From a candidate division WOR-3 bacterium (GTDB lineage: Bacteria; Hydrothermota; Tepidihabitantia; B3-TA06), in NCBI GenBank assembly GCA_965649265.1, contig CBFGKC010000006.1, positions 114,975 to 178,974 on the forward strand: a stretch of 64,000 nt of DNA, given 5' to 3'. The position numbers and the translations under genes were made by a program. The stretch's first letter is position 1, and every line of letters starts with the position of its first letter. Below are positions 1 to 48,996 of the stretch, one piece after another. The notes below the pieces were generated by a model. It worked only from the letters and a program-made list of their open reading frames with translations. It searched no databases and was not told where the DNA came from.

Positions 1-915
1 AAGCGACGGGTTCATGGAGTACCCGGCCGCGTTCGAAACGCGCGATGGGCTCGACCAGGTCTCGCCGCGGTCCAGTGAATACTCGGTGAATATCTCGAAG
101 TTATAGTCAAACCGCCTGTCCATCCACGCGAGATAGATCACCGAATCCTGGACCTCTATCGTCGGCATCCACGAGCTTGCCGGGTCGTCCGTGAGGCGTG
201 TATCCTCGCTCCAGGTCATGCCCGCATCCGCCGAGCGCTTGAAATAAATCTCCCTCGAGCCCGAGCGCGCGTCCGACCAGACCACGTAGACGTTGGAATC
301 CTTTACCGCCACGCAGGGGAAGCATGAATCCGAAGGAATCTGTACGAGCCGCACATCCGCGTCCCAGGTCTGACCGGCATCCACCGATCGCTTGTAGTAA
401 ACCTCGTCCGTGGCGTTGCGGTTGTCCTCCCACACGACGTGGACGAAGGTGCCCGAAGCCGCCATCGAGCCGAAGCGCGAGCGCGCGGGGTCCGTCGTAA
501 GGCGGACCTCATCATCCCATGTCTGGCCGTCGTCCGAAGACCGGCGGAAGTACATCTCCAGGTTGCCGTCGCGCCAGTCCTGCCACAGGACGTACACGAG
601 GGAATCCTCGACCGCGATTGAAGGATATGCCGACCCGCTTGGCGTGAGGCTGACCTTCATTGCGTCGTTCCAGGTCACACCCTTATCGGCGGACCTGATG
701 TAGTAGAGGTTGTTCGGGGCCTCGGCCTCACCCCAGATGACGTGAACGGTTGCGTCCCATACCGCCATGCAGCGGGAGTTGTTGTATCCCAGGTACGACC
801 ATGTCGGTGTCTCGGAGAGCTGTTGTAACGGTTCCCAAAGAACCTCCGCGTCGAGTGTTCCGGTTCCTGAGATCGCGATAAGCAGCGAAATCATGACTGA
901 AAAGAAAGTCTTCAT
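1..915 (-). CDS. BNR/Asp-box repeat protein (sialidase-like beta-propeller), N-terminal part; ORF runs off the left window edge
   Basis: The reverse-strand frame is uninterrupted from the ATG at 913-915 (MKTFFSVMISLLIAISG, signal-like) to position 1. It carries five S-x-D-x-G-x-T-W Asp-box motifs (SADKGVTW, SSDDGQTW, SVDAGQTW, SADAGMTW, SLDRGETW). It is absent from the ORF track only because there is no stop in the window. It is a paralog of 978..2417. Confidence 0.6.
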   Translation of the reverse strand, partial: MKTFFSVMISLLIAISGTGTLDAEVLWEPLQQLSETPTWSYLGYNNSRCMAVWDATVHVIWGEAEAPNNLYYIRSADKGVTWNDAMKVSLTPSGSAYPSIAVEDSLVYVLWQDWRDGNLEMYFRRSSDDGQTWDDEVRLTTDPARSRFGSMAASGTFVHVVWEDNRNATDEVYYKRSVDAGQTWDADVRLVQIPSDSCFPCVAVKDSNVYVVWSDARSGSREIYFKRSADAGMTWSEDTRLTDDPASSWMPTIEVQDSVIYLAWMDRRFDYNFEIFTEYSLDRGETWSSPSRVSNAAGYSMNPSL

Positions 916-977: not shown

Positions 978-2417
978 TCAGCGTAAAACAATCAACTTGC
1001 GCGAAAGAATCCTGTCTCCGGATTCAAGAATGCACAAGTAGACGCCTTCCGGAGCCATGCTTCCGGTGATGTCGGTTCCGTCCCACGAGACCGTATGGCT
1101 GCCTTCGGGCACTCGCTCGCACAAGAGCGTCTTCACGAGTCTTCCGGAAGCGTCAAGCAGCTTCAACCGCACGCTGCCTGCCGCCGGTATGTCAAAGTAC
1201 ACCAGCGCCACGCCTGAATTTATGAGCGATATCTTTAACGCCGGTCCATCTGCGTGGGGTTTCTCGCTTGTCCCCGGTTCAGGCTTATGGGGGATTAGCG
1301 CTTTTTTGTAGTATATCTCGTGGTTGCCGCTTTCGTTGTCCTGCAGGATCATATGCAGGACAGAATCCGAGAGTGCAAGAAAAGGGCTGTAAGAAGTAGC
1401 GGTGTTATTGCTGAGATTGGTATCGGCGCTCCAGGTCGCGCCGAGGTCGGTCGAGTACTTGAAATAAATTTCGGCGTTGCCGTCGCGGAAATCGTACCAG
1501 GCGAGGTAGACGGCCGAATCGGACGTTACCATATACGGGGTGCGGGAGTGACCGGCGGCATCCGTGAGTCTTTGGTCAGGGCTCCAGGTTGTACCCGCAT
1601 CCAGCGAATGCTTGTAGTATATCTCGTGGTTGTTCCACGGGTCGTTGCGGTCGTCAGTCCATGCAACGTGAATGTTTGAGCCGTTGACCGCAATGGCAGG
1701 ATGCTCCGAGTTCTTGGGATCGTCCTCGATGCTTGCATTTTTATCCCAGCTTTGGCCTTTGTTTCCGGAATGCTTGTAGTAAATCTGTGTGCCTTCTACC
1801 CATACGATATAGACGTCTGAACCCTGTGATCGAACGGCGGGGAACGAAGAGCGGAGAACGGTTCCTGAAAGATTCGTGTCCGCACTCCACGTGGTTCCGT
1901 TATCGGTCGAACGCTTGTAATATACCTCCATGTTGCCGTCGCGGAAGTCCTGCCAGACAAGATGGAGCACCGAATCCGAAACCGCTATCGATGGATACAG
2001 CGAGGAGTCGGCGTCGAATGTCAGCCGCTGCTCTTCCGTCCAGGTGCTTCCGGAGTCCTCGGAGCGCGTGTAGTATATCTCGTTCCACGCGTTCTGCCAT
2101 ACCACGTGAACGAGCGCTCCCTCTGTCGCGATTGCAGGGTAGTCGGCGGCGCCCGGCGCGTGAGAGAGCACCGTATCCCCGAGCCACGTTTGGCCTTCGT
2201 CGAGCGAGCGGGCGTAGCGGATGTTATATGGACCGTACGCCTCGCCCCACACCGCGTGAAGGACCTTGCCCGAACGGACGAGCGACTGCGTGTTGTTGTA
2301 GCTGAGGTATGACCATGAGGGCGTGTTCGATATCTTTTGGCCGGGCTGCCACTGCGGCTGCGCCGCGAGCGTTGCCGCGAACACTAAAGCGATGACTGCT
2401 GAAAGAAGGTATTTCAT
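978..2417 (-). CDS. Secreted BNR/Asp-box repeat protein with T9SS C-terminal sorting domain
   Basis: The ORF 978..2459 is trimmed to the ATG at 2417 (MKYLLSAVIALVFAATLAA signal peptide, with GGAGG upstream). It has at least six SxDxGxTW motifs (SLDEGQTW, SEDSGSTW, STDNGTTW, SGNKGQSW, SLDAGTTW, STDLGATW). The C-terminus ...GVYLCILESGDRILSRKLIVLR matches the T9SS CTD pattern. Confidence 0.65.
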   Translation of the reverse strand: MKYLLSAVIALVFAATLAAQPQWQPGQKISNTPSWSYLSYNNTQSLVRSGKVLHAVWGEAYGPYNIRYARSLDEGQTWLGDTVLSHAPGAADYPAIATEGALVHVVWQNAWNEIYYTRSEDSGSTWTEEQRLTFDADSSLYPSIAVSDSVLHLVWQDFRDGNMEVYYKRSTDNGTTWSADTNLSGTVLRSSFPAVRSQGSDVYIVWVEGTQIYYKHSGNKGQSWDKNASIEDDPKNSEHPAIAVNGSNIHVAWTDDRNDPWNNHEIYYKHSLDAGTTWSPDQRLTDAAGHSRTPYMVTSDSAVYLAWYDFRDGNAEIYFKYSTDLGATWSADTNLSNNTATSYSPFLALSDSVLHMILQDNESGNHEIYYKKALIPHKPEPGTSEKPHADGPALKISLINSGVALVYFDIPAAGSVRLKLLDASGRLVKTLLCERVPEGSHTVSWDGTDITGSMAPEGVYLCILESGDRILSRKLIVLR

Positions 2418-2651
2418 CCGGACCTCCAGTTTTTTTCTCCGCCGTCCGGCGAAGTCCACAAAGATTGAGATAAGGATAATGTATGTCGAAAAGGCTCATT
2501 GTCAAGAGGGGGGAGGGGGCAGTGCCTGGAAGTTTGTTGCATCCGGTATTGACAACGCTTGGTCTCGGCCTATATTAAAGATGTAAACTTTGACTCCCCA
2601 CGGGGTCCCCACGCAGACGCGAAGTGGATGCGCAGGGTATAACATTCGGAG

Positions 2652-4340
2652 GTGAACGTGAAACGGTTAGTGCTTTTAATAGTAATCCCAATGATAATCT
2701 TTGCAGGGGATGGATGGGTGAGGACATATGGTGGAGGTGGAGGATGTTGTGTACAATTGACTGATGATGGTGGCTATATTATTGTTGGGGTAAATAGTGA
2801 GCATCTCTCGATTCTTAAAACTGATGGAAACGGTGATACATTGTGGACGAGTTTTTTTCCTGAAGGAATTTGGAGTATCGGGAAGAGCATTACAGAAACA
2901 AGTGATGGATGTTATATTGTAACTGGGTTATTACATGGTTCGGGGATAAATGAAGTCGGTCTTTGGTTAATTAAGGTGGATTCCGTAGGCAAAACATTGT
3001 GGTCATATGTCTACGGAAGTGAGGAAGGAGCTGACGGTGAGTGTGTACAAAAAACAAACGATGGAAACTATATAATTACTGGTATTGTTAAAGGTGATCT
3101 TTGGTTGCTTAAAGCCAACCCTCAAGGTGATACCATTTGGACGAAAAGATATGGCAGAGAGGGTTACGAGGATATCGGTTTATTCCTCGAACAAACAAAG
3201 GACGGTGGTTTCGTAATTACAGGCTATAAAGATTATTCTGTTGCTCTGGGAAGCGAACCTAATTTGTGGTTATTAAGGACTAATTCTCAAGGTGATACCC
3301 TGTGGACAAAAAACTATGGTGGTTTGGGTATTTGTAAAGGGACCTGTGTTCGTCAAACCGAAGATGAGGGGTTCATAGTTACTGGTATAAACCGTTCACT
3401 CAATGACCTATGGTTAATCAAAACCAATAACGCAGGAAACATTGTTTGGTCTAAGATATATGACTGCGGTGTTAACTGGGATGCATCACCTTGTATTCAG
3501 AAAACTATTGACGGGGGGTATATTTTAATAACTATGACTCTTGCTTTTGGTGCAGGTTCCGTAGATTTCTGGTTAGCTAGAACGAATATTGACGGCGACA
3601 CTTTATGGACACGAACCTATGGAGGAACCGGTATAGATTGGCCGTATTATGTACAACAAACAAATGACGAAGGGTACATTCTCGTAGGTTCGGGGATGGG
3701 AGGGCTTATTGTGATTAAGACAGATTCTTTAGGAGATATCGCGGTGGCTGTTTCTCCCACCGATATCGGTCGACCAGACAACGGTGGCGATTATTACGGG
3801 GTTAGACCAGGTGCATATTTTACAAATTGGGGAACATTTGAAGAAGCAAAAGGCTTCTATTGTCATTGTGAAATTGCAGATATCAATGATTCAACTTTAT
3901 TCTACCATGACAGCGTTTTAATCGCTGCTCCCATTAAACCTTGGGAAACAAGATACGTATCATTTGTTCAGTGGATTGCACCTGCGATATCCAGTTTCAC
4001 GGCAACATTCTATACAACAAAAGCCAATAATCCACAGAGAAAGTCAGTTTCCTTTCGTTGGAGCGGTATCGCTGAACCCGTAACACCCGTAAGGTACCAG
4101 GCTTCTCCAGAAATGGAGATATCCTCATCAATCGGTTCGACCATCACCCTTCGCTACTCGAACTGCGCCGACGGTTTCCGGGCGTCCGTCTACGACGCGT
4201 CTGGAAGAGAAATTGACGAGATAGAATCGTCCTCAACCTCAGGCACACTAGAATGGGGGGAGTGTTACGGGCCTGGAATGTACTTTATACTTGCCGAGGG
4301 CTCGAATAGAAGCCCGACAAAGGTCGTGCTGGTCAGGTAG
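2652..4340 (+). CDS. Secreted beta-propeller-like tandem-repeat protein with T9SS CTD
   Basis: There is an N-terminal signal/TM (LVLLIVIPMIIFAG). A repeat of about 50 aa recurs at least 6 times, marked by DGGYI(I/V)(V/T)G ... GDT(L/I)WT(K/R)xYGG. The C-terminus is GMYFILAEGSNRSPTKVVLVR. Paralogs lie at 11732..13069 and 23225..24547. Confidence 0.6.
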   Translation: MNVKRLVLLIVIPMIIFAGDGWVRTYGGGGGCCVQLTDDGGYIIVGVNSEHLSILKTDGNGDTLWTSFFPEGIWSIGKSITETSDGCYIVTGLLHGSGINEVGLWLIKVDSVGKTLWSYVYGSEEGADGECVQKTNDGNYIITGIVKGDLWLLKANPQGDTIWTKRYGREGYEDIGLFLEQTKDGGFVITGYKDYSVALGSEPNLWLLRTNSQGDTLWTKNYGGLGICKGTCVRQTEDEGFIVTGINRSLNDLWLIKTNNAGNIVWSKIYDCGVNWDASPCIQKTIDGGYILITMTLAFGAGSVDFWLARTNIDGDTLWTRTYGGTGIDWPYYVQQTNDEGYILVGSGMGGLIVIKTDSLGDIAVAVSPTDIGRPDNGGDYYGVRPGAYFTNWGTFEEAKGFYCHCEIADINDSTLFYHDSVLIAAPIKPWETRYVSFVQWIAPAISSFTATFYTTKANNPQRKSVSFRWSGIAEPVTPVRYQASPEMEISSSIGSTITLRYSNCADGFRASVYDASGREIDEIESSSTSGTLEWGECYGPGMYFILAEGSNRSPTKVVLVR

Positions 4341-4659
4341 AACCGGATGTTCGCTCGCATTGAGTGGGGGAGAGGGCTTTTGTGAAGGCGAAGAAGGTGG
4401 TTCTAGTCAGTTAAACTTCACCGCCCCCTCCCCCTCCGGATACCGGTGGAATTTTTTGTGCCCGGGACGAATGAGGCGATTGCCTCGGCCCATGCGCCTC
4501 CCAGTCGCTGTTTGTCCCACTTCTGACCCACACTTTGACCGACTGCCGTAAGGGGCGGCTGACCCTCCTTCGGAGTGTTTGAAGTTTGCCTCGATTTCAT
4601 TTTTCAGTAGGCATACTTCCCCGCAATAATCGAAATTTCGCCCTGAATATGCCATGAAA

Positions 4660-4780
4660 AAAACCCAAAATTGGCCATTTTGTCCATCTTTTGTCCCACT
4701 TTTGTCCAGCTTTTTTTACCCCAAAATAGTCGCATTTTCCTCAAGAACGGACTACAATTTTGTGGGGATTCCCGTTTTTT
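4660..4780. repeat. Dispersed noncoding repeat, copy 1 (core TTTGTCCATCTTTTGTCCCACTTTTGTCCAGCTTTTTTT)
   Basis: The core is near-identical to 49613..49665 over about 55 nt. The flanks CCCCAAAAT...CAATTTTG(T/C)GGGGA are also shared with the 49592..49765 copy. No reading frame is conserved between the two copies. Confidence 0.55.
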
Positions 4781-4885
4781 CACCCCGGACGTCCACTTCG
4801 CCTCGCTCGTATCAAGCGGACTCCCCGTTTACCCAGTTATAAAATGAGATTCCACAAGATTAAGCCTGACTTGTGCTTATGAACG

Positions 4886-7153
4886 TTATCTCAAAATCAC
4901 GAGCTTGGTTTTGTAGCGGAACGAGCTGCCTTTTGCTTCAACGAAATACACGCCGCCGGGCATAGGACGGTTGAGGTTGTCCTTCGTGTCCCAGGTGTAA
5001 CTTACGTTATTCGAATAGATTACGGAAAGAGGAACCTGTCTTACCACTTGTCCTGCGATGTTGTAAATCGTCAGATTGACCGTTTGTCCCGGATCGGCTG
5101 AAAACAAAATCTCGGTTTGATTATTGGTAATATTCGGAATACATTCGAGCCCGTCGATTGTCGAGGTCACACCTGTTTTAAGTATCGGTACTGTAACGAC
5201 ATGCGAATCGTTGTTCGAATGAGGCAGAATGATAAAAATACGTTTTCCCCTGATCTCATAACTTTGCAGTTTAACCCCGTCCATCCATAAGTTACCATTA
5301 ATTTTGTACTTGTCTGGATCGAATTCGATGACCAGGGTTTCGTCCCTGCTGAGTTTCCCGTTAAAGGAAAAGACCAGACCTATATATTTTGAATATGAGT
5401 AACTTATGTTGTGTATGTCCCGAAGCTCATCCATGAAATCGCCGTATTCGTCAGGAAACAGGTAATCGAGATGGGGAAAATCGGTTTCCATAGCGGTGAA
5501 AACCTTATTGATTTTATCGTATGCCGTATCAGAACCACCATCGAACCATGCCCATGGATGTCCAGCAGTCAGCACATATTTTCCTTTCTGCAATAATATC
5601 TTGACGGAATCATAATTATCTGGTGTATCGCCCGACCACGTTGAGGAAAGGAGCCATAGTCGATTACTAGGTGAATAAACGGGGCACACAAAAGTATTCA
5701 CTTTGGATTTCGCTCTTACGAAGGAATAATCACTGACTTTAAAACCGTGGCGGAGCAGTGAAGAAGTAAGGGAAGCGCACGTTTTGAATCCGGGGGGACG
5801 AATGAAACGCAAGGATTTGTTCGTCAGACCTAAGGAGTCGTACATCTTTTCGATTCTTACGAAAGTGGATTCAGCACCTATCGAATCGTTGTGCTCAAAC
5901 TCCCAGCCTGGCCCCAGAGAATCCGGCGTCGGATAGTCAGGCTCGCTGTCACTTGGGGTGTGGTGCAGACCGTGGCTGCCCAAACGCGCCTGGTCTTCGT
6001 AGCCGTAAATCAAGTTTGCGTTTTCTATGTTGCGCAGCCAGGCCCTGTATTCTTCAGTTGAATGGTAGAGGACATTCCTGTACTTACCGTTTACTCGCCA
6101 CCACCGGGTTTCTTCAGGGTTTTCTACCCAGGAGCTGTCCCTGACATAATTAAGCAAGATCAGCCATCCCTGTTTCATGCGAGGATGATCTTCCAACAAT
6201 CTTACCATGCAATGACTTATTGGAGTTGTCGTATCCTGTCCGGATTTAGGCACGAACCATGTGGGCGGCGATCCTGGTTTTTTAGGAACCTCAAAGGGGA
6301 TGTTGTCAAACATCATCATTACGATTTGCTCGTTCCCGTTGGGGAACGGGGAGAAGTATGCGAGAGGGCATTCGAGTGCTGTTTGAATTTCTTCTGAGGC
6401 GTTGCCTAAGACAAGTTCATAACTGCATTCGAGAACATCACCAGGGCCAAGAATGGAGTAAGATGCCGGGCCGGTCCATGAATTTATTTTTCTCAACAAC
6501 TCACTTTTTAGAGTCCATTCCTTTGAGTGTGAAATGTGGTTAAGATTCCACAATCCCCAATAAGGGTTTCTTGAGATTACCCATAACGTGGAGTAAAGAT
6601 TTCGGAATTCTAGTATAGGGAAAACACTCAAGGGAGATTTTTTTAAAGTATCAGTGTCGGAAAAAGAGTAGACTTCGCCTGTATGATTATAAGTCTTGAA
6701 AGATTCGAAAGTCGGTATCTTCGATGTGAGATCAAGCCCTTCGGGAAATTTTACCGTGTCGAGTGCCTCGAAGCGGTATTTCAAGAACAGATGATTTTCC
6801 ACAAGCGTCATTTCAATTTCTGTGGAGAGGTTAAGCGGGGTAGCACTCGAATTGGTGAATTGCGGAGAAAATATTTTAATCTTATTTGTGTCCAGTATTA
6901 CGACTTCTCCCGATGAAGGAAAGTAGTCGCCCGCCCTGAGGGCAAAAAAATCATTTGTTCCGTCAACGATCTTTTTTTCTCCGGCGGTAAGATTCAGGAT
7001 AGAACCGACAGGGGTTTTCAATTTCGTAACACTCGTAGTGACTTCAAATGAAGATGATCTTATTGACCATGTGCCGTCGAGATTATTGATTACTGTTGCG
7101 AAACCAAATCCACGGATCAATAAAAACGAAATTAAAACAAGAAAACGTTTCAT
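4886..7153 (-). CDS. Large secreted protein with T9SS CTD; possible CE4/NodB-like polysaccharide deacetylase core (weak)
   Basis: The ORF 4886..7207 is trimmed to the ATG at 7153 (MKRFLVLISFLLIRGFGFA signal). The C-terminus is GGVYFVEAKGSSFRYKTKLVILR. Motifs GSHGLHH, RFIRPPGF and LTAGHPWAWFD loosely resemble CE4 motifs 2, 3 and 5. Confidence 0.5.
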   Translation of the reverse strand: MKRFLVLISFLLIRGFGFATVINNLDGTWSIRSSSFEVTTSVTKLKTPVGSILNLTAGEKKIVDGTNDFFALRAGDYFPSSGEVVILDTNKIKIFSPQFTNSSATPLNLSTEIEMTLVENHLFLKYRFEALDTVKFPEGLDLTSKIPTFESFKTYNHTGEVYSFSDTDTLKKSPLSVFPILEFRNLYSTLWVISRNPYWGLWNLNHISHSKEWTLKSELLRKINSWTGPASYSILGPGDVLECSYELVLGNASEEIQTALECPLAYFSPFPNGNEQIVMMMFDNIPFEVPKKPGSPPTWFVPKSGQDTTTPISHCMVRLLEDHPRMKQGWLILLNYVRDSSWVENPEETRWWRVNGKYRNVLYHSTEEYRAWLRNIENANLIYGYEDQARLGSHGLHHTPSDSEPDYPTPDSLGPGWEFEHNDSIGAESTFVRIEKMYDSLGLTNKSLRFIRPPGFKTCASLTSSLLRHGFKVSDYSFVRAKSKVNTFVCPVYSPSNRLWLLSSTWSGDTPDNYDSVKILLQKGKYVLTAGHPWAWFDGGSDTAYDKINKVFTAMETDFPHLDYLFPDEYGDFMDELRDIHNISYSYSKYIGLVFSFNGKLSRDETLVIEFDPDKYKINGNLWMDGVKLQSYEIRGKRIFIILPHSNNDSHVVTVPILKTGVTSTIDGLECIPNITNNQTEILFSADPGQTVNLTIYNIAGQVVRQVPLSVIYSNNVSYTWDTKDNLNRPMPGGVYFVEAKGSSFRYKTKLVILR

Positions 7154-10445: not shown

Positions 10446-10522
10446 GTTACCTCTCCCTTTGTGTATCTATTTTTTCTTCTTGTCCTGAAAATTCTTGCCT
10501 GTGCCGGATAGTGCAGAAAGGC

Positions 10523-11599: not shown

Positions 11600-11691
11600 T
11601 GGTTGTTGTCATACGCTAACTATACCAAGCTTAAGTGCCCTTGTCAAGCTAAATAAAATGCCCCCTAAAAGTCGAATGACGACATTTAGGG

Positions 11692-11730
11692 ATCCCGAGA
11701 AGTCAGTTTCGGACTTCTCGGGGTCCCGGA
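11692..11730. repeat. Perfect 16-bp-stem inverted repeat (GGGATCCCGAGAAGTC-agtttcg-GACTTCTCGGGGTCCC)
   Basis: It is seen directly in the sequence. It lies between the start of the YD-repeat gene and the stop of 11732..13069. No U-tract follows it on either strand. Confidence 0.5.
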
Positions 11731-11731
11731 T

Positions 11732-13069
11732 TCATTTCACAATTATAACCTTGCAGATTCGGCAAGGATCTACATCGGGGACTATGAAATACACGCCTGC
11801 CTCGTGTCCTTTACCCCATTTGAAAGTGCCTTGTGTTTGAGATGGTTTTATTTTGTCCACCTTGCGGCCGGATGCGTCGTATACATCGGCTTGAAAACCG
11901 CTGGGATGTCCCGAGTATTGCAGCACTATCTCCTTACCGATGGGGGAGAGGAGTTGCCAGGCTGTTATTTGCTCGACAGCAGGTTTTTCCGCGACTCCTA
12001 CGTTGCCAAGGGAATCGGTCTTAATAAGACAGATTTTGTAAATACCGCTTTCCGAGGTCATAACCTCTCCGGTAATAATAAAACCCTTATCCTGGGTTTC
12101 CTGGACACTGAATCCTCTGTTCCATGAGTTTTCGCCGAATTGTTTTGTCCACTGAAAGTTTCCATTTTTATCTAACTTAAGGAGGAGCAGAAAAGTTCCG
12201 TGATCGGTCCTGAAAATTCCGGTTGCGGCTAAACCGCCGTCATATGTCTCATCACAATCATAGGCCTGCAGAGAATCTCTTGCAAAAGACCAGACTGTAT
12301 CCCCCAGTTCATCGAGCTTGAGTATCCATAAAGCCTGCCCGCCGTTTTTCCAGCCTGCAACATAGTACCCACCTTCGGTCTGGTGTATGGAGTAGCCCTT
12401 TTCTCCTTCCGTGGACAAGCCATGGCTTTTTGCCCAAAGGAGATTGCCCTTATCATCGGTCTTGACAACGCCCAGATGAAAGGCTGAATCTCTGCCTGTT
12501 ACAATAAAACCGTTATCTTCAGTTTTTGCGATACACAAACCTTCCAGCCCATACTGGTGCGTCCAGACCGTATCGCCGTTCTTGTCGAACTTCATGATAG
12601 TCCAGGGGGTGCCTGTTGCAGCATATCCGTCTGCCGTTTCGATTACACATTCGCCATAAGAAAAACCACTATTATTGCCAATCGCCTGAGTCCATAAAGT
12701 GTCGCCATAAGGGTTCGTTTTTATCAACCACAAATGAACCGTCTGCCAGCCACCCGCACAACTACCCACGAGCGTATATCCTTCGTCAGTTGTTTGGATG
12801 ACAGAAAGGCCTTTACCGCCGTAAGCTTTTGAATCCTTGTATGTTTTAGACCATTGGATTTCGCCCAAAGGATCGGTTTTCAGGAGGCAGGTTCCGGCTA
12901 CTATATATCCTCCATCCTTTGTTTGCTTGACGGAGTATCCTGAATTGAAATCAGCGTCACCGTAAGTTTTCATCCAGCCGGCAACACTCGACAGAGGGAA
13001 TATCAGCAACCCAAGAACCGTCAAGACTATGTTTGTCAGAGGATTAAACACTAACCTCGATTTTTCCAT
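11732..13069 (-). CDS. Secreted beta-propeller-like tandem-repeat protein with T9SS CTD (paralog of 2652..4340)
   Basis: There is a signal/TM (LTNIVLTVLGLLIFPLSSVAG). The repeats are DGGYIVAG ... GDTLWTQAIG / GDTVWTHQYG / GNLLWAKSHG. The C-terminus is GVYFIVPDVDPCRICKVIIVK. Confidence 0.6.
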   Translation of the reverse strand: MEKSRLVFNPLTNIVLTVLGLLIFPLSSVAGWMKTYGDADFNSGYSVKQTKDGGYIVAGTCLLKTDPLGEIQWSKTYKDSKAYGGKGLSVIQTTDEGYTLVGSCAGGWQTVHLWLIKTNPYGDTLWTQAIGNNSGFSYGECVIETADGYAATGTPWTIMKFDKNGDTVWTHQYGLEGLCIAKTEDNGFIVTGRDSAFHLGVVKTDDKGNLLWAKSHGLSTEGEKGYSIHQTEGGYYVAGWKNGGQALWILKLDELGDTVWSFARDSLQAYDCDETYDGGLAATGIFRTDHGTFLLLLKLDKNGNFQWTKQFGENSWNRGFSVQETQDKGFIITGEVMTSESGIYKICLIKTDSLGNVGVAEKPAVEQITAWQLLSPIGKEIVLQYSGHPSGFQADVYDASGRKVDKIKPSQTQGTFKWGKGHEAGVYFIVPDVDPCRICKVIIVK

Positions 13070-13157
13070 AAAACCTCCTCAAGGTTTTTTTGGCTTACGC
13101 CTCCTCATTAACGCCCAACAATTAAATTCTGGTCAAAAAACCTGCTTATCAAGCTCT

Positions 13158-14453
13158 CTAGCTCGCGTAAGGGAACAGGAACTTTAGCGATGCGCCGAAG
13201 CGGTAGAACTTTTCGGTATACAAATCTTCCTCCAGCCCGAACTTCTTGGACCAGGTCGCGTACTCGAAGGAACTGTTGAGGACAACATACGAAGAGATAG
13301 GTATGCCTATCCCTGCGGTTACACCTTTGAGATACTTTGGTGTGTGCTGGCCTGAGTCGGCCTGCGGGATCGCGTCAAAGTAGAAACCTCCGCGTACTAT
13401 CACAGGCGATACGAATTCGGCACCGAAGCGGAACGTGGAACCGTCGTTCACGCCGAGCCTTGAGCCTAAGGCCTCGACGGCAGTGAAGAAGCGAGTCTGG
13501 AATTCACCTGAAAGATTGAGGAAAGGCAAAATCTTCGACCGCAAACCGACGGTGAAGACGCCGGGCAACATGTAGGCTGTTGAGTCATCTACCTGGTGTT
13601 TTATCTGAATTCCATTAGTGTCCAATACAAGCGTTGAATCAAACCAAGTAATCTCCGTTCCGGAAAGGCTTTCCTCGCCCCATCTCCAGCCCCAGGCTAT
13701 AGGTGATCGATATGAGAAGCTTATACCCAACTGGGGAAAGGGTTCCGCAAACGCGCCTACAGTGAAAAAATTTCCTGTCGAGGAGAAGTTACCTTTGTAT
13801 CTTATTCGTGTTTCATCGTATATACCGGAGGTGTCCCCGTCTTCAATCTCAAGATCATCGTAAACGCTTACTTCGTAATAGCTGCTTTTGAGCTTCTCTA
13901 GTGCGCTGAAGCTGAAGGCCAGACCAATGGAGTAATTGTCCAGTATGCTCATTGCGATCGCCGGGGTTATTACCCTTAAACCGCCGGTTGCGGTATCGGT
14001 CATCTTATAACTTCCGTTTTCGAATTCCCAGTTAATCTCCCTGTTGACGGCATTATCAATATGTAGGTGATAGCCGAAAGCAGGATAGAGCACAGCGTAT
14101 TCCGCGATCTGGATGGGCAAAGCTAAAGAGACGTGTGTGAACTGGGGGATGGTGTTATATTTTGTGTAGTATTGCTCTTCTTGTATCTCTTCCTGGCCGA
14201 AACCCCAGTAAAGCCTTCCGCCGATCTCCATTTCAAGATAATCAGCGTCCAGCAAAAGAGCAGGATTGAAAAAGATGGCGTTCGAACCCTGAGCGCTGAC
14301 CGATCCGGTATTGCCCATGCCGCAGGAACGGACATCCACGACGGTGGGATTAATTGCGTCAACCATAAATGCATAAACGGTTGAATTTACGAAAAATAGC
14401 GGTAACAATACGACCAAAGTCTTAAAGGTCGCTTTTTTTTCAAATCCTGACAT
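13158..14453 (-). CDS. Outer-membrane beta-barrel protein, FadL/OmpP1-like superfamily (possibly PorV/PorQ-like)
   Basis: The ORF is trimmed to the ATG at 14453 (MSGFEKKATFKTLVVLLPLFFVNSTVYA signal). The mature N-terminus, VRSCGMGNTGSVSAQGSNAIFFNPALL, fits the R-x-x-G-M-G-x-x-G ... NPA motif of FadL-like barrels. It has an aromatic-rich C-terminus (FLFPYAS). Confidence 0.4.
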   Translation of the reverse strand: MSGFEKKATFKTLVVLLPLFFVNSTVYAFMVDAINPTVVDVRSCGMGNTGSVSAQGSNAIFFNPALLLDADYLEMEIGGRLYWGFGQEEIQEEQYYTKYNTIPQFTHVSLALPIQIAEYAVLYPAFGYHLHIDNAVNREINWEFENGSYKMTDTATGGLRVITPAIAMSILDNYSIGLAFSFSALEKLKSSYYEVSVYDDLEIEDGDTSGIYDETRIRYKGNFSSTGNFFTVGAFAEPFPQLGISFSYRSPIAWGWRWGEESLSGTEITWFDSTLVLDTNGIQIKHQVDDSTAYMLPGVFTVGLRSKILPFLNLSGEFQTRFFTAVEALGSRLGVNDGSTFRFGAEFVSPVIVRGGFYFDAIPQADSGQHTPKYLKGVTAGIGIPISSYVVLNSSFEYATWSKKFGLEEDLYTEKFYRFGASLKFLFPYAS

Positions 14454-14670
14454 GCACATACCTACCTCCAGGCTTGCCTTTTTTGTATCTATAGTGTATA
14501 CCGAAACATGTGATTTGTCAAGCCCTTCTGTGAGCTTCTGGTCATCTAAGTCAAGCCAAAAAAACATCTGTAACCGTCAGCCCTCTCAGTCATATCCCGG
14601 CATTGGTCTTACAGACTGAGTTAATTGGAATAATATCCAAATCACAAGCAGAGAAAGATGTGTTACTGAG

Positions 14671-14905
14671 TCCTCCTCAGAAACCTCCTCAGAGCTACCC
14701 CTCAGTCTTCCTTACATCCCCGGCGCTCCTCATTGGATCAGTAATAATGAAACAGCAGAAGCCGGAGGGTTCTGCCAATGCGCCTCCGGCGCTCCTCATT
14801 GGAGAGTAGAAGTAAAATGGCGGAAGCGGAGCTTGCGCCCAGCGCCTTCGAGGCGCTCGCTCTCCTCAGAAATACCCTGACACATGTCTGACACACTGAG
14901 CTAAT
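14671..14905. repeat. Composite noncoding repeat element, locus 1 (CCTCAG-type short tandem repeats + GCGCCTCCGGCGCT hairpin modules)
   Basis: Its roughly 85-bp core, atgcgcctccggcgct..ttgga..gtagaa.t.aaatggcggaagcg.agcttgcgcccagcgcc, is shared with two copies at 51946..52170. It is flanked by ACTGAG(T/C)TAAT at 14622 and 14893. Confidence 0.6.
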
Positions 14906-15040
14906 CTTAGCGGTATGTTTCTATTTATGAGCTATGAGGGAGAAGGGGGGGCAGGAGCCCTCCTCAGAGACCTCTCGGTGTCGATTTTACATAATTTTCT
15001 GAGCGGAGTATCTTTCTATTCACGACCAATGAGGGATGGT

Positions 15041-15096
15041 GTGTTACGGGGGGGGGACGGGTGTTACGGGTGGGTGTTACGGGTGGCGTTACGGGG
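15041..15096. repeat. Short tandem repeat (GTGTTACGGG x4, the reverse complement of CCCGTAACAC) overlapping the rSAM stop codon
   Basis: The sequence reads gtgttacggg ggggggacgg gtgttacggg tgggtgttacggg tggcgttacgggg. The rSAM stop codon (TAA at 15089..15091, minus strand) lies inside the last unit. The same unit recurs at 48003..48081 and 58790..58830. Confidence 0.6.
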
Positions 15097-16111: not shown

Positions 16112-16112
16112 G

Positions 16113-16688: not shown

Positions 16689-16717
16689 TGGTCAATATAC
16701 GGCTGATAGGGATGGTG

Positions 16718-23224: not shown

Positions 23225-24547
23225 ATGCATCCATTTCTGGTTTTCTGTTGTTGTTTGATTTCATCTTTGACTTGGAATAGACATTATGATTTTCGGTTTA
23301 GTGACCACTGTAGCGCGCTTGTGCCGGTAGAGGACGGTTACGTGATTACGGGTAACACTATGCGGTATCTATTCGTGCAGAAGGTCGATACTCTGGGAAA
23401 TCAAGTCGGTTACAAAGAGTGGTATAAGGCCGAAGGTTATGACATAGAGAGAATGTCTGATGGTTATATTATTCTTGCGTACAAAGACGAATCTCCCAGG
23501 CACGGGATTTGGTTGGTAAGAACAGATAGCGATTTTGACACACTTTGGAGTAGAAGCTATGGATATAATAATGGAATTATGGCAAAATCTCACTCATTTG
23601 ATTTAACAGATGACAGTGGTTTAGTGATGGTCGGTGAGTGCGGCACGGGTCTTATTGTCTTTAAAACCGATAGTCTTGGTGATAGCTCCTGGGTAAAAAA
23701 ATATTTTCAGTCTGTCTCGATGCGCGCTGGGAATTTTATTGAAGAAACATCTGATCAAGGTTTTATTGTTACGGGAGTTTGTGAGGAACGTTTTTTTGCA
23801 CTGAAATTGGATGAGAATGGGGATTCCTTATGGTGTAAGAAATATTTTGAGGAAAAAACAGGTGAAGGTCTTTGTATAAGAGAAACCTCCGACAAAGGCT
23901 TTATAGTATTGGCTAGGATAAGGTATGGTAGTTCGGATTCCTTGCTTCTCATCAAGACGGATTCTTTTGGAAACGCTTTGTGGGTGAGAAAATTCAATTC
24001 GATGTCTCATTGGACTAGAACATGTTATATTGAGGTTCTGGATGATGGTTATGTTATGATTTCAGGGTCACAAGAAGGTCCATTAGTCAGGAAATTTGAC
24101 GAGTCTGGGAATGTCCTTTGGACAAAGACCTACAATCGTAATTTCGGTTATTTTTCCGGATTTGAAGGCACATGTATTCATTACACATCGGATAAAGGTT
24201 TTATTATTGGCACCGCTTTGGATATATCTCCATACGGATCAGACCTCTGGCTGGTGAAAACCGACAGCCTAGGAAACACGGTTCCTCTTGAATCCGTGAT
24301 AGAGCCAACGGAGACTGCCGTTAGCGAAGTTCATCTGAGTGTTTTGAATTCAGCTGTTGCATATTCCTTACCTGCTGGCGAGCGTTGTTTGTTGAAAATC
24401 TATGATGTTAGTGGAGTATTGAAAAAAGGAGAAATTGTTTGTGGCCGCGGAGAGATGCGACTAAAAGAATTCCCTGTAGGGGTTTATTTCGCTGAGTTAC
24501 AGTTCATGCGAAGTGCTGAAATCAAAAAGGTATTAGTTTTTCCCTAG
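23225..24547 (+). CDS. Secreted beta-propeller-like repeat protein with T9SS CTD (paralog of 2652..4340 and 11732..13069)
   Basis: The repeats are SDGYIILAYKD ... GDSSWVKKYF / GDSLWCKKYF / GNALWVRKFN / GNVLWTKTYN. The C-terminus is VGVYFAELQFMRSAEIKKVLVFP. An AGGGAGAG Shine-Dalgarno site sits upstream. Confidence 0.55.
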   Translation: MHPFLVFCCCLISSLTWNRHYDFRFSDHCSALVPVEDGYVITGNTMRYLFVQKVDTLGNQVGYKEWYKAEGYDIERMSDGYIILAYKDESPRHGIWLVRTDSDFDTLWSRSYGYNNGIMAKSHSFDLTDDSGLVMVGECGTGLIVFKTDSLGDSSWVKKYFQSVSMRAGNFIEETSDQGFIVTGVCEERFFALKLDENGDSLWCKKYFEEKTGEGLCIRETSDKGFIVLARIRYGSSDSLLLIKTDSFGNALWVRKFNSMSHWTRTCYIEVLDDGYVMISGSQEGPLVRKFDESGNVLWTKTYNRNFGYFSGFEGTCIHYTSDKGFIIGTALDISPYGSDLWLVKTDSLGNTVPLESVIEPTETAVSEVHLSVLNSAVAYSLPAGERCLLKIYDVSGVLKKGEIVCGRGEMRLKEFPVGVYFAELQFMRSAEIKKVLVFP

Positions 24548-30489: not shown

Positions 30490-32526
30490 TTAATTAACCA
30501 GGATAATCTTTCTTATGGATATTTCGTCGGTAGTTAATGTTCTTAAGAAGTATACGCCGGTTGAAAGGTTTTGAGGCCAGTGTATTTCCATTTCACCGTT
30601 AATTACTTGCAGTGGAAGGATTTCTTCTATCCTTCTGCCGCCAATATCGTAGAGTTCCATTCTGGCGAGCGTCCGGTAGGGCAGATTGAGTTTGAACGGC
30701 ACGCGGCTGTCCATTACCACGGGAAGGCTAAGGAGCCTGGAAACGGCACTGTCACGGGGCAGTATTTGTTCCTCGATGCTCAGTCTCAAGACCGGTTTGG
30801 CAGCAACAGGCTTGCACCTGCGGAACATTGCATCGATGGTGTTGCTGTCTGCAGCGTAAGATAAAAGAGTAATCTCATCGACGATTCCCTCTACAGAGTG
30901 GAGCTTATTGTTCTGACTGCCGACAAAGAAAGGCCAGTCTTGGTTTTGGTCTTTACCGGGGCGGCCGACCCAGATAGAATCCTGCAATACTGAATTTCGG
31001 TAGAAACGAATTATTTCCCCGTCATATGTAGCCGCCAGAAACATCCAATGATCAAGATTCTCCTGCGGATCCCCGGTCAAACGAAAGAAAGACTTCGATC
31101 GCGATTCGGTTGTGGTCCAGAGCGTGTCGTGCAAGAACGCAAGGTCCTCCGGCAGCAAGGGCTCGGAACAGAACGAAACGAATCCGGCTCTGTAATCTTC
31201 GAAAGCCGCGGCTTTTTCGAGATCGAATTTGATGAGACTTGCGTTGCCCGATTCCCAGACGTACTTACCGTCAAAATCCAGACCCTGAGAAGAGCCGGCG
31301 TTTCTGTATCGTCCTAAAATCTTCGGCTGGCCGGTGGCAAGAGAGGTCTTTTCGTCAACGATGTATGTGTAATGATTGACTCCCCAGGTGGAAATAAGAA
31401 GGCGTGACGTATCACCAAACGGAGCAAAACAGCATGCGGATAAGCTGTCTTGGTTGATAGAGAACGTACCGATGATGTTCGCGGAATGCGTTTCGTATGA
31501 TTTATGATAATCGATCGCGTAAATCATATTGGATTTGAAATCCGAGGCCCACAAGATATCGGATACCGAATCGTATGCCAGTCCTGACGTATGTTTGGCC
31601 TCGGGCGGCATATCGAACCAGCCGGTGCGTGACAGGTCGGCAGGATTGATCCTCCATACTTGAGAGGGTTGATTCGGATCGAGGTCAACGGCAAGAAAAA
31701 GCTCTTCCCCGACCGATGTAAGCCCCTGGGGAATAAATTTTTCTGAAACAAGGGGGCTTCCTACCCTTTCCCAGCCGAATGGAGGCATCATGCACGTAGA
31801 GGTTGTTGCCGCGTGGGATACCGAAAAGCAGAGATTCCCGCTTTGGAGCCAAATTTTGAAAAAATCGCTCACTTCGGCAATGATTCGCTGCGAAGCGGAG
31901 TATGCAAGGTTGCTCGAAGTGTCAAGCTTGAGCCATAAGGCGACTGTAAATGAATCCCTCAACGAATTCACGGGAATATCTGCCATTGCATAAGTACCTT
32001 TAGAAAAACACAAAGCCGAGCCCGATGAAAATGTCAAATCTTCCCTGTTTTGCCATCCTCCGCCGTCCCCTTCCTTCCAGGATGTTCCGTTAAGAGTAAG
32101 ACAACCGTTATGTTCCTCATAGTATGTCGAGTTCCCCAGGCCTTCGTCGCAGTGGAAAACCCAGCCTTGACCCGGGTCGACGGATATTTTTGTAAATACC
32201 GAATCGAAGTTTGGCCCAGTGTTTTCTTCATTTGCATAATATAAATCAAGGAAATCTTCGCCGGGTAAGAGAGTATCCATCTTGAGCCAGATGCTGGTTG
32301 AATTGGTTTGAATAGTATCCTCAATCCAGTACGGGATAAGATTATTATGGTGATAAAAGCGCAGCGAGTACGCCTCCGGATCGAGCTTTCCCTGGTCAAT
32401 TAGGTCGCGGGTATCCAGATTTAAATGAACCTGAACGTCTACAGCCGGGGTATCCGCAGGATTGCTTACTGTAATCTTGCGCTCGTATATATTCGACGCG
32501 AAGAGGTATAAAATCAAAAGCCCCAC
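30490..32526 (-). CDS. Secreted LamG/concanavalin-like domain protein with T9SS CTD
   Basis: A LamG-like stretch is present (SFTVALWLKLDTSS...IIAEVSDFFKIWLQSGNLCF). The C-terminus is GVYFLRTLTTDEISIRKIILVN. Confidence 0.5.
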   Translation of the reverse strand: MGLLILYLFASNIYERKITVSNPADTPAVDVQVHLNLDTRDLIDQGKLDPEAYSLRFYHHNNLIPYWIEDTIQTNSTSIWLKMDTLLPGEDFLDLYYANEENTGPNFDSVFTKISVDPGQGWVFHCDEGLGNSTYYEEHNGCLTLNGTSWKEGDGGGWQNREDLTFSSGSALCFSKGTYAMADIPVNSLRDSFTVALWLKLDTSSNLAYSASQRIIAEVSDFFKIWLQSGNLCFSVSHAATTSTCMMPPFGWERVGSPLVSEKFIPQGLTSVGEELFLAVDLDPNQPSQVWRINPADLSRTGWFDMPPEAKHTSGLAYDSVSDILWASDFKSNMIYAIDYHKSYETHSANIIGTFSINQDSLSACCFAPFGDTSRLLISTWGVNHYTYIVDEKTSLATGQPKILGRYRNAGSSQGLDFDGKYVWESGNASLIKFDLEKAAAFEDYRAGFVSFCSEPLLPEDLAFLHDTLWTTTESRSKSFFRLTGDPQENLDHWMFLAATYDGEIIRFYRNSVLQDSIWVGRPGKDQNQDWPFFVGSQNNKLHSVEGIVDEITLLSYAADSNTIDAMFRRCKPVAAKPVLRLSIEEQILPRDSAVSRLLSLPVVMDSRVPFKLNLPYRTLARMELYDIGGRRIEEILPLQVINGEMEIHWPQNLSTGVYFLRTLTTDEISIRKIILVN

Positions 32527-44724: not shown

Positions 44725-46359
44725 TTACTTTACGATAGTTACCTTTGCGGTCCTGGTACCCGCGCCGTTGTCGAGCCTGACGAAATAGACTCCTGTTGGA
44801 ACATGACGTCCCACATCGTCCGTGCGATTCCAGGAGAGCGTGTGATTGCCAGCGCTCGCCTCGGTGCTCGCAAGCATCCGCACCAGCCTGCCCGACGCGT
44901 CGAATACGGAAAGTGTCATGCTTCCGGCCTTCGGCAATTGGTAGTTGATGCGGACGCTGCCCGATGCCGACATATCGTTCACCGAAAGACTCAGCTCGCG
45001 AACCATCTCCATTGTTTGCGATTGCGGGGTCTCAACCTCGTTGCTTGAGGGGGGGAGGGGTATTGTCGAAAGTCCGAGAAGCTTCTGTGAGGTCTCGAGC
45101 TTCCGTATCTTTTCCGTGACCGCCTTGTAATCGGTCTTCTGCTCCCTGCCCTTTACACGCGCGATGGCCATCCAGCTGAAGGTCGCGTTGAGGTCGCCTA
45201 CCTCGGATACCGCGGTGAATCCTCTTGTCGTCACGTCCTTCACGTATATGCCCGAGTAGGATCCCTCGGGTGTCACTATCACTTTGATCGGTATCTGACT
45301 CGATATCACCTGCGGGTACGGTTCCTCGAACTCTATCCTTGCAATGCCGTTGGAAAGCTTCGTGCGTCCCGATATGGTGTATTCGGGATACGGTGCTTCG
45401 GTGGCCGACATGGTCACCCAGGTGCCGTCGTCCATCTTGATCACGTTGTCCTTGTCGCCCGTTACGTAAAGGTCACCCTGTATAAGGACGTCTCCTAAAA
45501 AGTTGCCTGCATAGGGGGTGCCGACGATTTCGATTCCGGCATTCGCGGTTCCGATATATACGTAGTTCGATCCAAGTCCTTTGATGTATGCGCCCCAGTT
45601 GCTGCCTGCAAGGGCTGCTTCGGAGCCGTTTACGTGAAGGAATTGTCCCGCCAGAGAGCTTGTAGATGCCGCGTAAGCGTACAACCCCCTGGTCGAACTG
45701 CCCAGGTATGCGTTGTTGCCGTTATTATTTCGACCGAACACTCCGTAACTTGCGGAACCTATATATCCGTAGTTGCCCGATGAGCTTCTGCCGTATACCC
45801 CGTAGGAAGAATGACCCAGTATCCCGTAATTCGAATTTGAATTCGCTCCGTATGCGCCGTAAGTCGAGGAGCCAAGATAGGCGTAATTCCCGTTGCCGTT
45901 CGCGGCATAGGCAGCGTAGTCATTCGAACCTATATATCCATAGTTGTTGCTCGAGGAATCCTTGCCATAGACCCCGTAGTCGGTGGAAGCCAGATAACCG
46001 TAGTTGCCCAGGTTATGACTGCCGTATGCCCCATAGCTGAAGGAACCCAGATATCCGAGATTCCCTGATGAGTACTTGCCGTATGCGCCGTAGCCGATTG
46101 AAGCGATGTGCCCCTGGTTTCCCGAATAGTGCTCGCCGTACACGCCGAACAAGGTGTATCCCAGATAACCCAGGTTTCCGTTCGCGTTCTCTCCATACGC
46201 GCCGAAGTAGAAGTGACCCAGATATCCAACAGTCGAGGACAGTGTAGAGGTTCCTTTTACTCCCCAGTAATCACCTGAACCTTCCACCTGTACGGCGAAA
46301 AGGTTTATGCAGGCGAGCATTACACTCGCGATGACGACGAGTTTTTTTATTGTGGACAT
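44725..46359 (-). CDS. Secreted Tyr/Gly-rich tandem-repeat protein with T9SS CTD
   Basis: The signal peptide is MSTIKKLVVIASVMLACINLFA. About 11 consecutive units of roughly 15 aa follow (GYLGSFSYGAYGSHNLGNY / GYIGSNDYAAYAANGNGNY ...). The C-terminus is GVYFVRLDNGAGTRTAKVTIVK. Confidence 0.65.
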   Translation of the reverse strand: MSTIKKLVVIASVMLACINLFAVQVEGSGDYWGVKGTSTLSSTVGYLGHFYFGAYGENANGNLGYLGYTLFGVYGEHYSGNQGHIASIGYGAYGKYSSGNLGYLGSFSYGAYGSHNLGNYGYLASTDYGVYGKDSSSNNYGYIGSNDYAAYAANGNGNYAYLGSSTYGAYGANSNSNYGILGHSSYGVYGRSSSGNYGYIGSASYGVFGRNNNGNNAYLGSSTRGLYAYAASTSSLAGQFLHVNGSEAALAGSNWGAYIKGLGSNYVYIGTANAGIEIVGTPYAGNFLGDVLIQGDLYVTGDKDNVIKMDDGTWVTMSATEAPYPEYTISGRTKLSNGIARIEFEEPYPQVISSQIPIKVIVTPEGSYSGIYVKDVTTRGFTAVSEVGDLNATFSWMAIARVKGREQKTDYKAVTEKIRKLETSQKLLGLSTIPLPPSSNEVETPQSQTMEMVRELSLSVNDMSASGSVRINYQLPKAGSMTLSVFDASGRLVRMLASTEASAGNHTLSWNRTDDVGRHVPTGVYFVRLDNGAGTRTAKVTIVK

Positions 46360-48294: not shown

Positions 48295-48996
48295 CTAGTG
48301 AATCACCACTAACTTTGAGGTGTAGTCAATGTAGAACGAGCTGTCGGGAACGATGAATCTCGTAAAATAGATGCCAGCAGGCAAGGTCGAGAAGTCTTTC
48401 TGTATTGAGTGTGAACCTGCGCAGTAATTACCACTTAGTATTGTCTCGATTAACGCTCCCCGGAAATCGTAGAGAGCCAGGTGAACTACCATGGGTTTCG
48501 GTATCGCGTAGTTCAAACCGGCAGTTCCTGAGACTATTGAAGGGAAGTGCGGCGGTCTTTCTAACCGCAACTTTCGCGATGCGGTGTCGTTTCTTGCAAC
48601 GGTATCGTATGGATTCGAGACCCGCGCGAAAATCATGAAGGAATCAACGTCTTGAGAAGAGAAAGGCTTGTGAGAGTAGACGACCGTCTTTCCGGGCGCA
48701 AGCGCGTTTACGTACAACGTGTCTGTGTAAACCACCTGGTTTGTGGTAAGAGATGTTATCGTGAAGTAAAAATCGGCATAGGTGTGATGCGAGCTGAAAC
48801 TCTCTACGGTGCATCCGATCTTGATCTTACTATCAGGATACAAGTCATAGGCATAAAGACTACCAGCATAATTGATACTTGTTATCCAGAGGTCAAGGCT
48901 GTCGCCTGCCTGCAAACCTCTCTCAGGCGTGTTCGCTGCATTCATCGCGCTTGCTGAGACAAGAAGAAGTGTCGCTGTCAGAATTTTATTTCCCAT
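48295..48996 (-). CDS. Secreted protein with T9SS CTD
   Basis: The signal peptide is MGNKILTATLLLVSASAMNA. The C-terminus is AGIYFTRFIVPDSSFYIDYTSKLVVIH. Confidence 0.5.
   Translation of the reverse strand: MGNKILTATLLLVSASAMNAANTPERGLQAGDSLDLWITSINYAGSLYAYDLYPDSKIKIGCTVESFSSHHTYADFYFTITSLTTNQVVYTDTLYVNALAPGKTVVYSHKPFSSQDVDSFMIFARVSNPYDTVARNDTASRKLRLERPPHFPSIVSGTAGLNYAIPKPMVVHLALYDFRGALIETILSGNYCAGSHSIQKDFSTLPAGIYFTRFIVPDSSFYIDYTSKLVVIH

Follow-up and report, generated by a model that had tools for sequence, protein, structure and literature searches.

Ten proteins with a shared type IX secretion-like C-terminal domain in a 64-kb stretch of a candidate division WOR-3 genome

Background

The type A cargo proteins that Bacteroidota export through their type IX secretion system (T9SS), such as NucA of Flavobacterium johnsoniae (PDB 8GLK chain D) and RgpB of Porphyromonas gingivalis (5HFS, 5AG8 and 7PQ4), combine a Sec signal and a passenger with a single terminal immunoglobulin (Ig)-like sandwich, the C-terminal domain (CTD), which carries a Gly-x-Tyr motif and a lysine in its last strand and serves as a tag on many unrelated passengers. 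In 104 Bacteroidota genomes the count of such type A CTD proteins exceeds 3,000, about 30 per genome, and a highly conserved lysine of these CTDs is reported to hydrogen-bond to PorV (PMC12398890). Ten proteins with the same layout, motif, lysine and diversity of passengers are predicted in the stretch analyzed here (hereafter, the window), 64,000 nucleotides from a candidate division WOR-3 bacterium (assembly GCA_965649265.1, contig CBFGKC010000006.1, positions 114,975 to 178,974).

The window proteins differ from Bacteroidota cargo in several respects. Their CTD scores straddle the cutoff of the curated T9SS model TIGR04183, which four of the ten pass, and their CTDs lack the 'PNP' start, which is present in two more distant WOR-3-type relatives (loci L011 and L012) that score higher on the same model. 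Their host belongs to WOR-3/Stahlbacteria and has Shine-Dalgarno sites and sigma-70-type promoters. The second system to which they can be compared is the flagellar hook-cap protein FlgD, whose Ig-like domain (FlgD_ig, PF13860) has the same fold, passes the Pfam gathering (GA) cutoff in three of the ten proteins and provides the top matches in structural searches. The window proteins lack the N-terminal domain of FlgD, however, and the domain is here a terminal tag on secreted multidomain proteins. We consider it likely, at a probability of roughly 0.7, that the ten proteins are exported by Sec and then directed by their terminal Ig-like domain into a type IX-like pathway, to be displayed on the surface or released.

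A C-terminal domain shared by ten proteins

Ten open reading frames (ORFs) of the window (Table 1) share one homologous CTD of about 80 residues that ends at the protein C-terminus. All ten lie where the original prediction had placed them, and the shorter starts that it chose for three of them (2417, 7153 and 52314) are the better ones, internal Met codons being found there just before signal-like hydrophobic segments. The span that it gave, 978-7153, takes in only the first three genes. In the ten translations, the tail runs from Gly-[Val/Met/Ile]-Tyr-[Phe/Leu] through a variable hairpin to a Lys; the four residues after the Lys are for the most part hydrophobic, and the final one is basic or polar. 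Every sequence of the CTD alignment has the Gly, the Tyr and the Lys. A correspondingly loosened regular expression, G[VMI]Y[FL]-x(6-18)-K[VLIF]-x-[IVLFW][IVLF][KRNHP] at the protein end, retrieves exactly these 10 of the 607 stop-to-stop ORFs, with 0.005 matches expected in a residue-shuffled control.

A profile of the last 80 residues recovers the ten proteins and no other ORF of the window. To avoid circularity, the profile was rebuilt ten times with one member omitted each time; the omitted member always ranked tenth (E-values from 1e-6 to 5e-19), while the eleventh match, the best non-member, had E-values of 0.2-1.6. Profile matches extend to the last residue in all ten proteins, and the domain is single-copy in each. 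All ten also have a hydrophobic N-terminal segment (mean Kyte-Doolittle value of 1.9-3.4 over a 12-residue window within the first 45 residues), usually preceded by basic residues; this Sec signal call is a hydrophobicity heuristic rather than a SignalP prediction and is weakest for the gene at 30490. Together, the ten genes amount to 15.5 kb, or 24% of the bases of the window, about one gene per 6 kb.

That the shared tail is a chance pattern or an artefact of ORF calling might be suspected because the regular expression of the original prediction, taken literally, fits only four of the ten C-termini. The segment that it described is nevertheless real in all ten, and such an explanation has hardly any probability left: it is ruled out by the leave-one-out E-values, the shuffled expectation and a confident predicted fold (see below), to which matches to curated families and orthologs in related genomes can be added.

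Relationship of the domain to T9SS and FlgD domains

The structural relatives of the domain were searched in the Protein Data Bank (PDB) with a profile made of the window CTDs and four CTDs from related genomes. The best match is 8glk_D, the CTD of the cargo NucA in the T9SS translocon complex of Flavobacterium johnsoniae (E-value 3.3e-6), and the next are a second cargo CTD, 8glj_D (4e-4), and the RgpB CTDs 5hfs (8e-4) and 7pq4 (1.6e-3); further matches include the RgpB CTDs 5AG8/9 and the C-terminal domain of an ice-binding protein. FlgD follows just behind the T9SS CTDs, with an E-value of about 4e-3. The invariant Lys of the family aligns with a Lys in the last strand of NucA (8glk_D) and may correspond to the PorV-contacting lysine of type A CTDs (PMC12398890). 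Sequence comparison thus identifies the ten CTDs as homologs of one another and of proven T9SS CTDs, and assigns the domain to the T9SS type A CTD/FlgD_ig family.

Curated models give a divided answer. The hidden Markov model TIGR04183 (cutoff 23 bits), through which the original prediction could be checked, is passed by four CTDs; five others have sub-threshold scores (13.5-17.9 bits) and one has no match (Table 1). No CTD reaches the 27 bits required by PF18962. Among the models for FlgD itself, the NCBIfam equivalogs yield 17-30 bits for the window proteins, compared with cutoffs of 230-383, and no flagellar genes were found in the window. Type B CTD cargo (CHU_C/TIGR04131) was also considered and rejected: its sole trace is a CHU_C score of 13.6 bits in one protein, and no PorP/SprF is encoded among the neighbors.

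An AlphaFold (AF2) model of the CTD of the 44725 protein, computed from the alignment of the ten sequences, is a seven-strand Ig-like sandwich with a confidence (pLDDT) of 94.5. When this model was compared with known structures using Foldseek, the matches (E-values from 1e-4 to 3e-3) were FlgD Ig domains, PorZ (5m11), the RgpB CTD (7pq4), PorU (6za2) and 8glk_D, the T9SS structures having E-values of 1e-3 to 3e-3.

The domain is very widespread. When 1.84 billion cluster representatives were searched exhaustively with HMMER, 313,567 matched at E-values of 1e-3 or below. The highest scores belong to giant proteins in which the domain core (profile positions of about 15-78) is repeated internally 7-22 times and the last strand is missing; among the matches listed, single-copy matches that reach profile position 87 end at the protein C-terminus. 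The fold is a common building block, and it is therefore the last strand together with the terminal position that mark usage as a sorting tag. All ten window proteins have this form.

T9SS components and taxonomic placement

The organism, an uncultured WOR-3/Stahlbacteria bacterium, is not a member of the Bacteroidota. Its DNA polymerase I (PolA), used as a marker gene to classify the taxon, is 72-74% identical to those of candidatus (Ca.) Stahlbacteria and WOR-3 metagenome-assembled genomes (MAGs), and its identity to any other sequence retrieved does not exceed 48%. Look-ups of four window proteins by exact sequence gave no match. The CTD subtype of the window is already present in annotated MAGs of WOR-3, Ca. 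Hydrothermota and Ca. Eisenbacteria. NCBI names the WOR-3 proteins 'T9SS type A sorting domain-containing protein' or 'FlgD immunoglobulin-like domain containing protein', and a search of a 5.8-billion-protein database with the CTD alignment yielded 26 short fragments. These annotations are automatic names on fragments, to which the window adds local density and a paralog structure. Three CTD proteins from Stahlbacteria- and WOR-3-labeled genomes pass TIGR04183, with 33.9, 44.1 and 39.6 bits.

The original prediction placed the organism in a T9SS-bearing lineage. The support for this comes from the CTDs and from PorX in WOR-3; no SprA/Sov, PorV, PorU or PorK-N was found in the window. A full-length PorX occurs in a TA06-labeled genome (L054), where it scores 516.6 bits on the equivalog model NF052313 (cutoff 300 bits). 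With this protein as a probe, 7,039 relatives were retrieved, many of the closest being labeled candidate division WOR-3 and one being named PorX by NCBI; ten WOR-3-labeled relatives all pass the model at full length (514-535 bits). In the WOR-3 assembly GCA_026418155.1, the gene order is FlgD_ig-tailed CTD protein, histidine kinase, PorX.

The neighbors of WOR-3 porX genes (L064 and L065) and of homologs of an outer-membrane barrel gene of the window (L059-L063) include no T9SS core genes; weak matches to PorW and PorE at these loci were discarded as tetratricopeptide repeat matches. The Porphyromonas gingivalis Sov sequence (from the supplement of PMC7323717) has no match by tblastn or phmmer in the window and 58 further loci, a null result that is uninformative because the loci searched make up a tiny part of any genome. 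Candidates for PorU were sought among eight long proteins with the window CTD subtype. One of them, a C25 peptidase (P0123), reaches 78.9 bits where the PorU model requires 420; as its contig lacks PorV, it could be cargo of the gingipain type, and a metagenome scan for it gave no match. Its gene belongs to a row of three consecutive CTD-subtype genes between rpoD and tuf (L066, positions 9382-19649, from Logan SRR24270826), which encode P0123 itself (Propeptide_C25 and Peptidase_C25, weakly PorU-like), an S8 peptidase (TIGR04183, 35 bits) and an SBBP-like protein (22.2 bits).

Sorting signal or general Ig module

A number of observations weigh against a role of the domain in type IX sorting. 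Six of the ten CTDs remain below the TIGR04183 cutoff and all ten below that of PF18962 (best score, 23.5 bits), and at the fold level FlgD Ig domains match as well as or better than T9SS CTDs, so that the fold agrees with a T9SS CTD but cannot separate it from FlgD_ig. Since it is found in up to 22 internal repeats in giant proteins, the domain is also a general-purpose Ig module. No ORF of the window reaches any T9SS component model of NCBIfam or Pfam, the faint scores on PorZ (14.8 bits) and PorV (20.3 bits) being the only traces. PorX is a regulator, not a core component, is known from related genomes and not from the source genome, and may have T9SS-independent roles (PMC12398890). Reviews confine the T9SS to the Fibrobacterota-Chlorobiota-Bacteroidota (FCB) superphylum. 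In NCBI taxonomy, neither lineage belongs to the FCB group: Caldifarciminota (WOR-3) stands immediately below Pseudomonadati, and Stahliibacteriota is listed among the 'Bacteria candidate phyla'. No paper connecting WOR-3 with type IX secretion was found in a literature search, and the papers on WOR-3 genomes and the supplements searched treat metabolism and leave secretion and the T9SS unmentioned.

The CTD could accordingly be no T9SS signal but an all-purpose Ig-like domain of the FlgD_ig type with a structural or adhesive role, such as a stalk or an envelope- or carbohydrate-binding domain, any export taking another route. Such a role would fit the facts that FlgD_ig is the sole Pfam family above its cutoff on these tails, that Foldseek places FlgD Ig domains above T9SS CTDs, that the top scorers among the approximately 314,000 matched representatives carry 7-22 internal core copies, that no T9SS core gene was demonstrated by the model scans of the window or the Sov search of the window and 58 loci, and that the lineage lies outside the FCB group in NCBI taxonomy. 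We nonetheless find it unlikely. Each of the ten proteins has one copy of the domain, which extends right up to the stop codon and has a last strand of the form K-hydrophobic-x-hydrophobic-hydrophobic-basic, whereas the internal repeats elsewhere stop at profile position ~78, without this strand. The best solved relatives by sequence are proven T9SS CTDs, not FlgD; the domain sits on unrelated passengers, as a sorting tag would; and the phylum has a PorX above the curated threshold.

If the domain is a type IX-like sorting signal, the cargo would be exported to the periplasm by Sec and would fold there, after which a T9SS-like outer-membrane translocon and shuttle would recognize the CTD with its invariant Gly-x-Tyr motif and the Lys of its last strand. 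The cargo would then be released, or attached to the surface once the CTD had been removed. The outcome would be a surface coat of binding proteins with propeller, lectin and repeat passengers, some of them possibly glycan-directed. We infer that a translocon (SprA), a shuttle (PorV), a sortase (PorU) and a motor (PorKLMN) are present in the genome and handle these proteins. A more far-reaching proposal is that WOR-3/Stahlbacteria run a type IX-like pathway with a divergent, PNP-less CTD at the edge of what Bacteroidota-trained models detect, and devote an exceptional share of the genome to its cargo. Cargo makes up 10-11 of the approximately 60 genes of the window, compared with about 30 genes per whole Bacteroidota genome; the proposal is speculative and rather improbable.

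The cargo genes

The passengers of the ten proteins are diverse (Table 1). Three of them (2652, 11732 and 23225) form a propeller paralog set, as originally predicted (29-33% identity, E-values from 1e-27 to 1e-45), which is distantly related to the SBBP propellers of 52314 and 53888; the latter form the predicted SBBP pair, with 36% identity and SBBP repeats. A predicted pair of BNR proteins is obtained only when 1-915(-) is counted with 978-2417, because this second BNR paralog is cut by the window edge. The two proteins are 42% identical over 308 amino acids (tblastn, E-value 6e-81); the truncated gene is probably an eleventh cargo gene. The BamB-like PQQ_2 proteins encoded at 37472 and 38767 have no CTD according to the CTD profile search of the window.

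The passenger of cargo 7 contains repeats (45734-46234) with a consensus of roughly N-x-G-Y-L-G-S-x-x-Y-G-A-Y-G and without a family match; it is probably a beta-solenoid.

Table 1. Cargo genes of the window and the adjoining barrel gene. TIGR04183 scores are in bits; leave-one-out gives the E-value at which the other nine CTDs recover the one omitted.
Feature	Coordinates	Strand	CTD	Description	TIGR04183	Leave-one-out	Other matches and remarks
Cargo 1	978..2417	-	981-1220	BNR/sialidase-like beta-propeller, 5 Asp-boxes	16.1	4.5e-13	BNR_2 58 bits and FlgD_ig 39.7 bits, both above Pfam GA
Cargo 2	2652..4340	+	4098-4337	SBBP-like repeat propeller, paralog of 11732 and 23225	16.1	2.8e-12	Paralogy E 1e-37 to 1e-45
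Cargo 3	4886..7153	-	4889-5128	755 aa, passenger without assigned family	27.7 (passes)	8e-8	FlgD_ig 32.1 bits (passes)
Cargo 4	11732..13069	-	11735-11974	SBBP-like propeller, directly downstream of BamG-like barrel	16.0	2.9e-10	Gene order kept in relatives L055-L061
Cargo 5	23225..24547	+	24305-24544	SBBP-like propeller; most divergent CTD, ends VLVFP	no match	1e-6	No PF18962 match
Cargo 6	30490..32526	-	30493-30732	Laminin_G_3 (concanavalin-like lectin)	17.9	4.8e-11	Laminin_G_3 44 bits; start codon and signal segment least certain of ten
Cargo 7	44725..46359	-	44728-44967	About 12 Gly/Tyr-rich repeats of 19 aa	32.6 (passes)		FlgD_ig 38.6 bits (passes)
Cargo 8	48295..48996	-	48298-48537	Small, 233 aa, passenger without assigned family	13.5	5.8e-10	
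Cargo 9	52314..53723	+	53481-53720	SBBP beta-propeller	23.8 (passes)		SBBP 58.7 bits; 11/12 sigma-70-like site at 52261-52288
Cargo 10	53888..55546	+	55304-55543	SBBP beta-propeller and CarboxypepD_reg-like domain	33.3 (passes)		SBBP 76.6 bits
Possible cargo 11	1..915	-		BNR paralog with signal peptide			Runs off window edge; C-terminus outside window
Barrel	13158..14456	-		FadL-type outer-membrane barrel, BamG-like			Immediately upstream of cargo 4; context gene, not shown to be T9SS machinery

Genomic setting

The genes found between the cargo genes include those for YjeF, KsgA, TatD, PolA, a nucleotidyl transferase, a FecCD-type ABC importer, DUF401, TonB, a V-type ATPase operon and HisRS. 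The CTD profile matches five ORFs in approximately 205 kb of WOR-3-type PolA loci and none in approximately 617 kb from other phyla (53 PolA loci), and the window is four to six times denser in CTD genes than WOR-3-type PolA neighborhoods. This local density, together with the G+C content of the cargo genes, which is below that of the housekeeping genes (0.475 versus 0.539; Mann-Whitney p = 0.005), would be expected if the region were a horizontally acquired secretome island, that is, a mobile block of surface-protein genes. The G+C content is lowest in the three-member propeller family (0.41-0.47) but housekeeping-like in two cargo genes (978 and 44725). The ten genes occur at seven places scattered among core housekeeping genes. 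The window has neither an integrase nor a transposase gene, and scans of it for tRNAs and with Rfam returned no tRNA and no Rfam family.

Gene order was compared with that of relatives over about 7.4-26.6 kb of the window, which comprises the tandem array described below, a radical SAM enzyme, the barrel, cargo 4 and YjeF. This order is kept in relatives from Logan in which the barrel is 91% or 56% identical, a 91%-identical relative being present in the assemblies ERR14947302-13; in a relative with a 45%-identical barrel, it is preserved on short contigs up to the barrel, at which the contigs end. The region is therefore ordinary chromosome, and the 'surface/secretome island' of the original prediction was not borne out; acquisition as a mobile block is very improbable.

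The expression signals attributed to the window are present. GGAG or GAGG precedes 18 of 29 genes, compared with a background of 14%, in keeping with the use of GGAGG-type Shine-Dalgarno sites, and 28 sigma-70-like sites were counted, about twice the expectation from shuffled sequences (14.7 +/- 3.9). A perfect TTGACA-N17-TATAAT site lies directly upstream of three window genes.

Several other features of the window may be mentioned. A perfect TTGACA-N16-TATAAT (55685-55712) lies ahead of a V/A-type ATPase operon in this bacterial genome (55722-60992, plus strand), which encodes subunits C/AC39, F-like, A, B and D. An ARPP-1 domain protein (PF20208, 229 bits) adjoins a TonB C-terminal domain protein (50099-51828, minus strand), neither of them with a CTD. 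Intergenic repeats include three tandem 40-nucleotide units between a NUDIX-like ORF and PolA (33820-33939), with a partial copy at 62983-63016; 66-nucleotide units common to 4653-4718 and 49593-49724; and GC-rich palindromic units common to the distant intergenic regions 14720-14855 and 51809-52163. A hairpin (ACCCCAAG...CTTGGGGACCCCG) occurs at four sites (11692, 33363, 44348 and 49726), at least two of which are gene ends.

The BamG-like barrel and the tandem array

The barrel encoded next to cargo 4 scores best on BamG (48 bits) and reaches 20 bits on PorV_fam; its identification as PorV/PorQ was rejected, as NF033709 (90 bits) is not reached. Its nearest known system is BamG, the FadL-type subunit of the barrel assembly machinery (BAM) of Bacteroidota (PDB 9N2D_B, 9HJM_F and 9HJ3_F). 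BamG is reported to be conserved in Bacteroidota and in six of the seven other FCB phyla (PMC12611786), so that the barrel speaks for an outer membrane of FCB type and not for a T9SS itself. The pairing of barrel and cargo 4 is kept in the relatives with a 91%- or 56%-identical barrel, and in the TA06-labeled genome (L054, 8232-12895) a barrel homolog lies between PorX and a TIGR04183-positive protein. By analogy with BamH, the CTD protein beside the barrel may partner it at the cell surface in this lineage specifically. A bolder possibility is that the CTDs are sorted by a reduced or non-canonical machinery, and that the conserved association of BamG-like barrel and CTD protein, next to PorX in the TA06 genome, marks a lineage-specific surface-assembly module.

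Twelve tandem paralogs (16113-23087, minus strand) of approximately 175-190 amino acids and 24-57% mutual identity are encoded directly upstream of a radical SAM/SPASM enzyme (15089-16111, minus strand). Each has an N-terminal segment of about 25 residues, one transmembrane helix, an invariant 'TCY' and an Ig-like ectodomain with 'PNPT-x-GADSV'; none has a Pfam or NCBIfam match. The 'PNPT' motif is common to these proteins and to classical CTDs, but the CTD profile does not match them and they were rejected as CTD relatives. The order of array, radical SAM enzyme and barrel is kept in all relatives found, with a copy number of 9-12, and is absent from the TA06 locus. The array may represent a family of membrane-anchored substrates of the radical SAM enzyme. 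Its association with this enzyme and the pairing of barrel and CTD gene may be more original than the CTD finding itself.

Conclusions

The sorting signal and its fold were known before, WOR-3 MAGs already carry automatic annotations of it, and the findings leave the mechanistic understanding of the T9SS unchanged. What is new is an unusually dense set of CTD genes in a Stahlbacteria-type genome, more than half of which are missed by Bacteroidota-trained models, and the presence of PorX in WOR-3, which lends indirect support to a T9SS in a phylum for which none has been described. Given what these models miss, the secretomes of such phyla are probably underestimated, and a lineage-specific CTD profile would remedy this. 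If the ten proteins are indeed type IX cargo, the documented host range of the T9SS would widen to WOR-3/Stahlbacteria, a widespread and almost uncultured phylum in which strain sy37 (PMC12285271) is a cultured WOR-3 isolate. It would also suggest that these anaerobes, whose genomes are small, spend much on coating their surface with propeller, lectin and repeat proteins, and this would bear on their attachment to particles or polymers.

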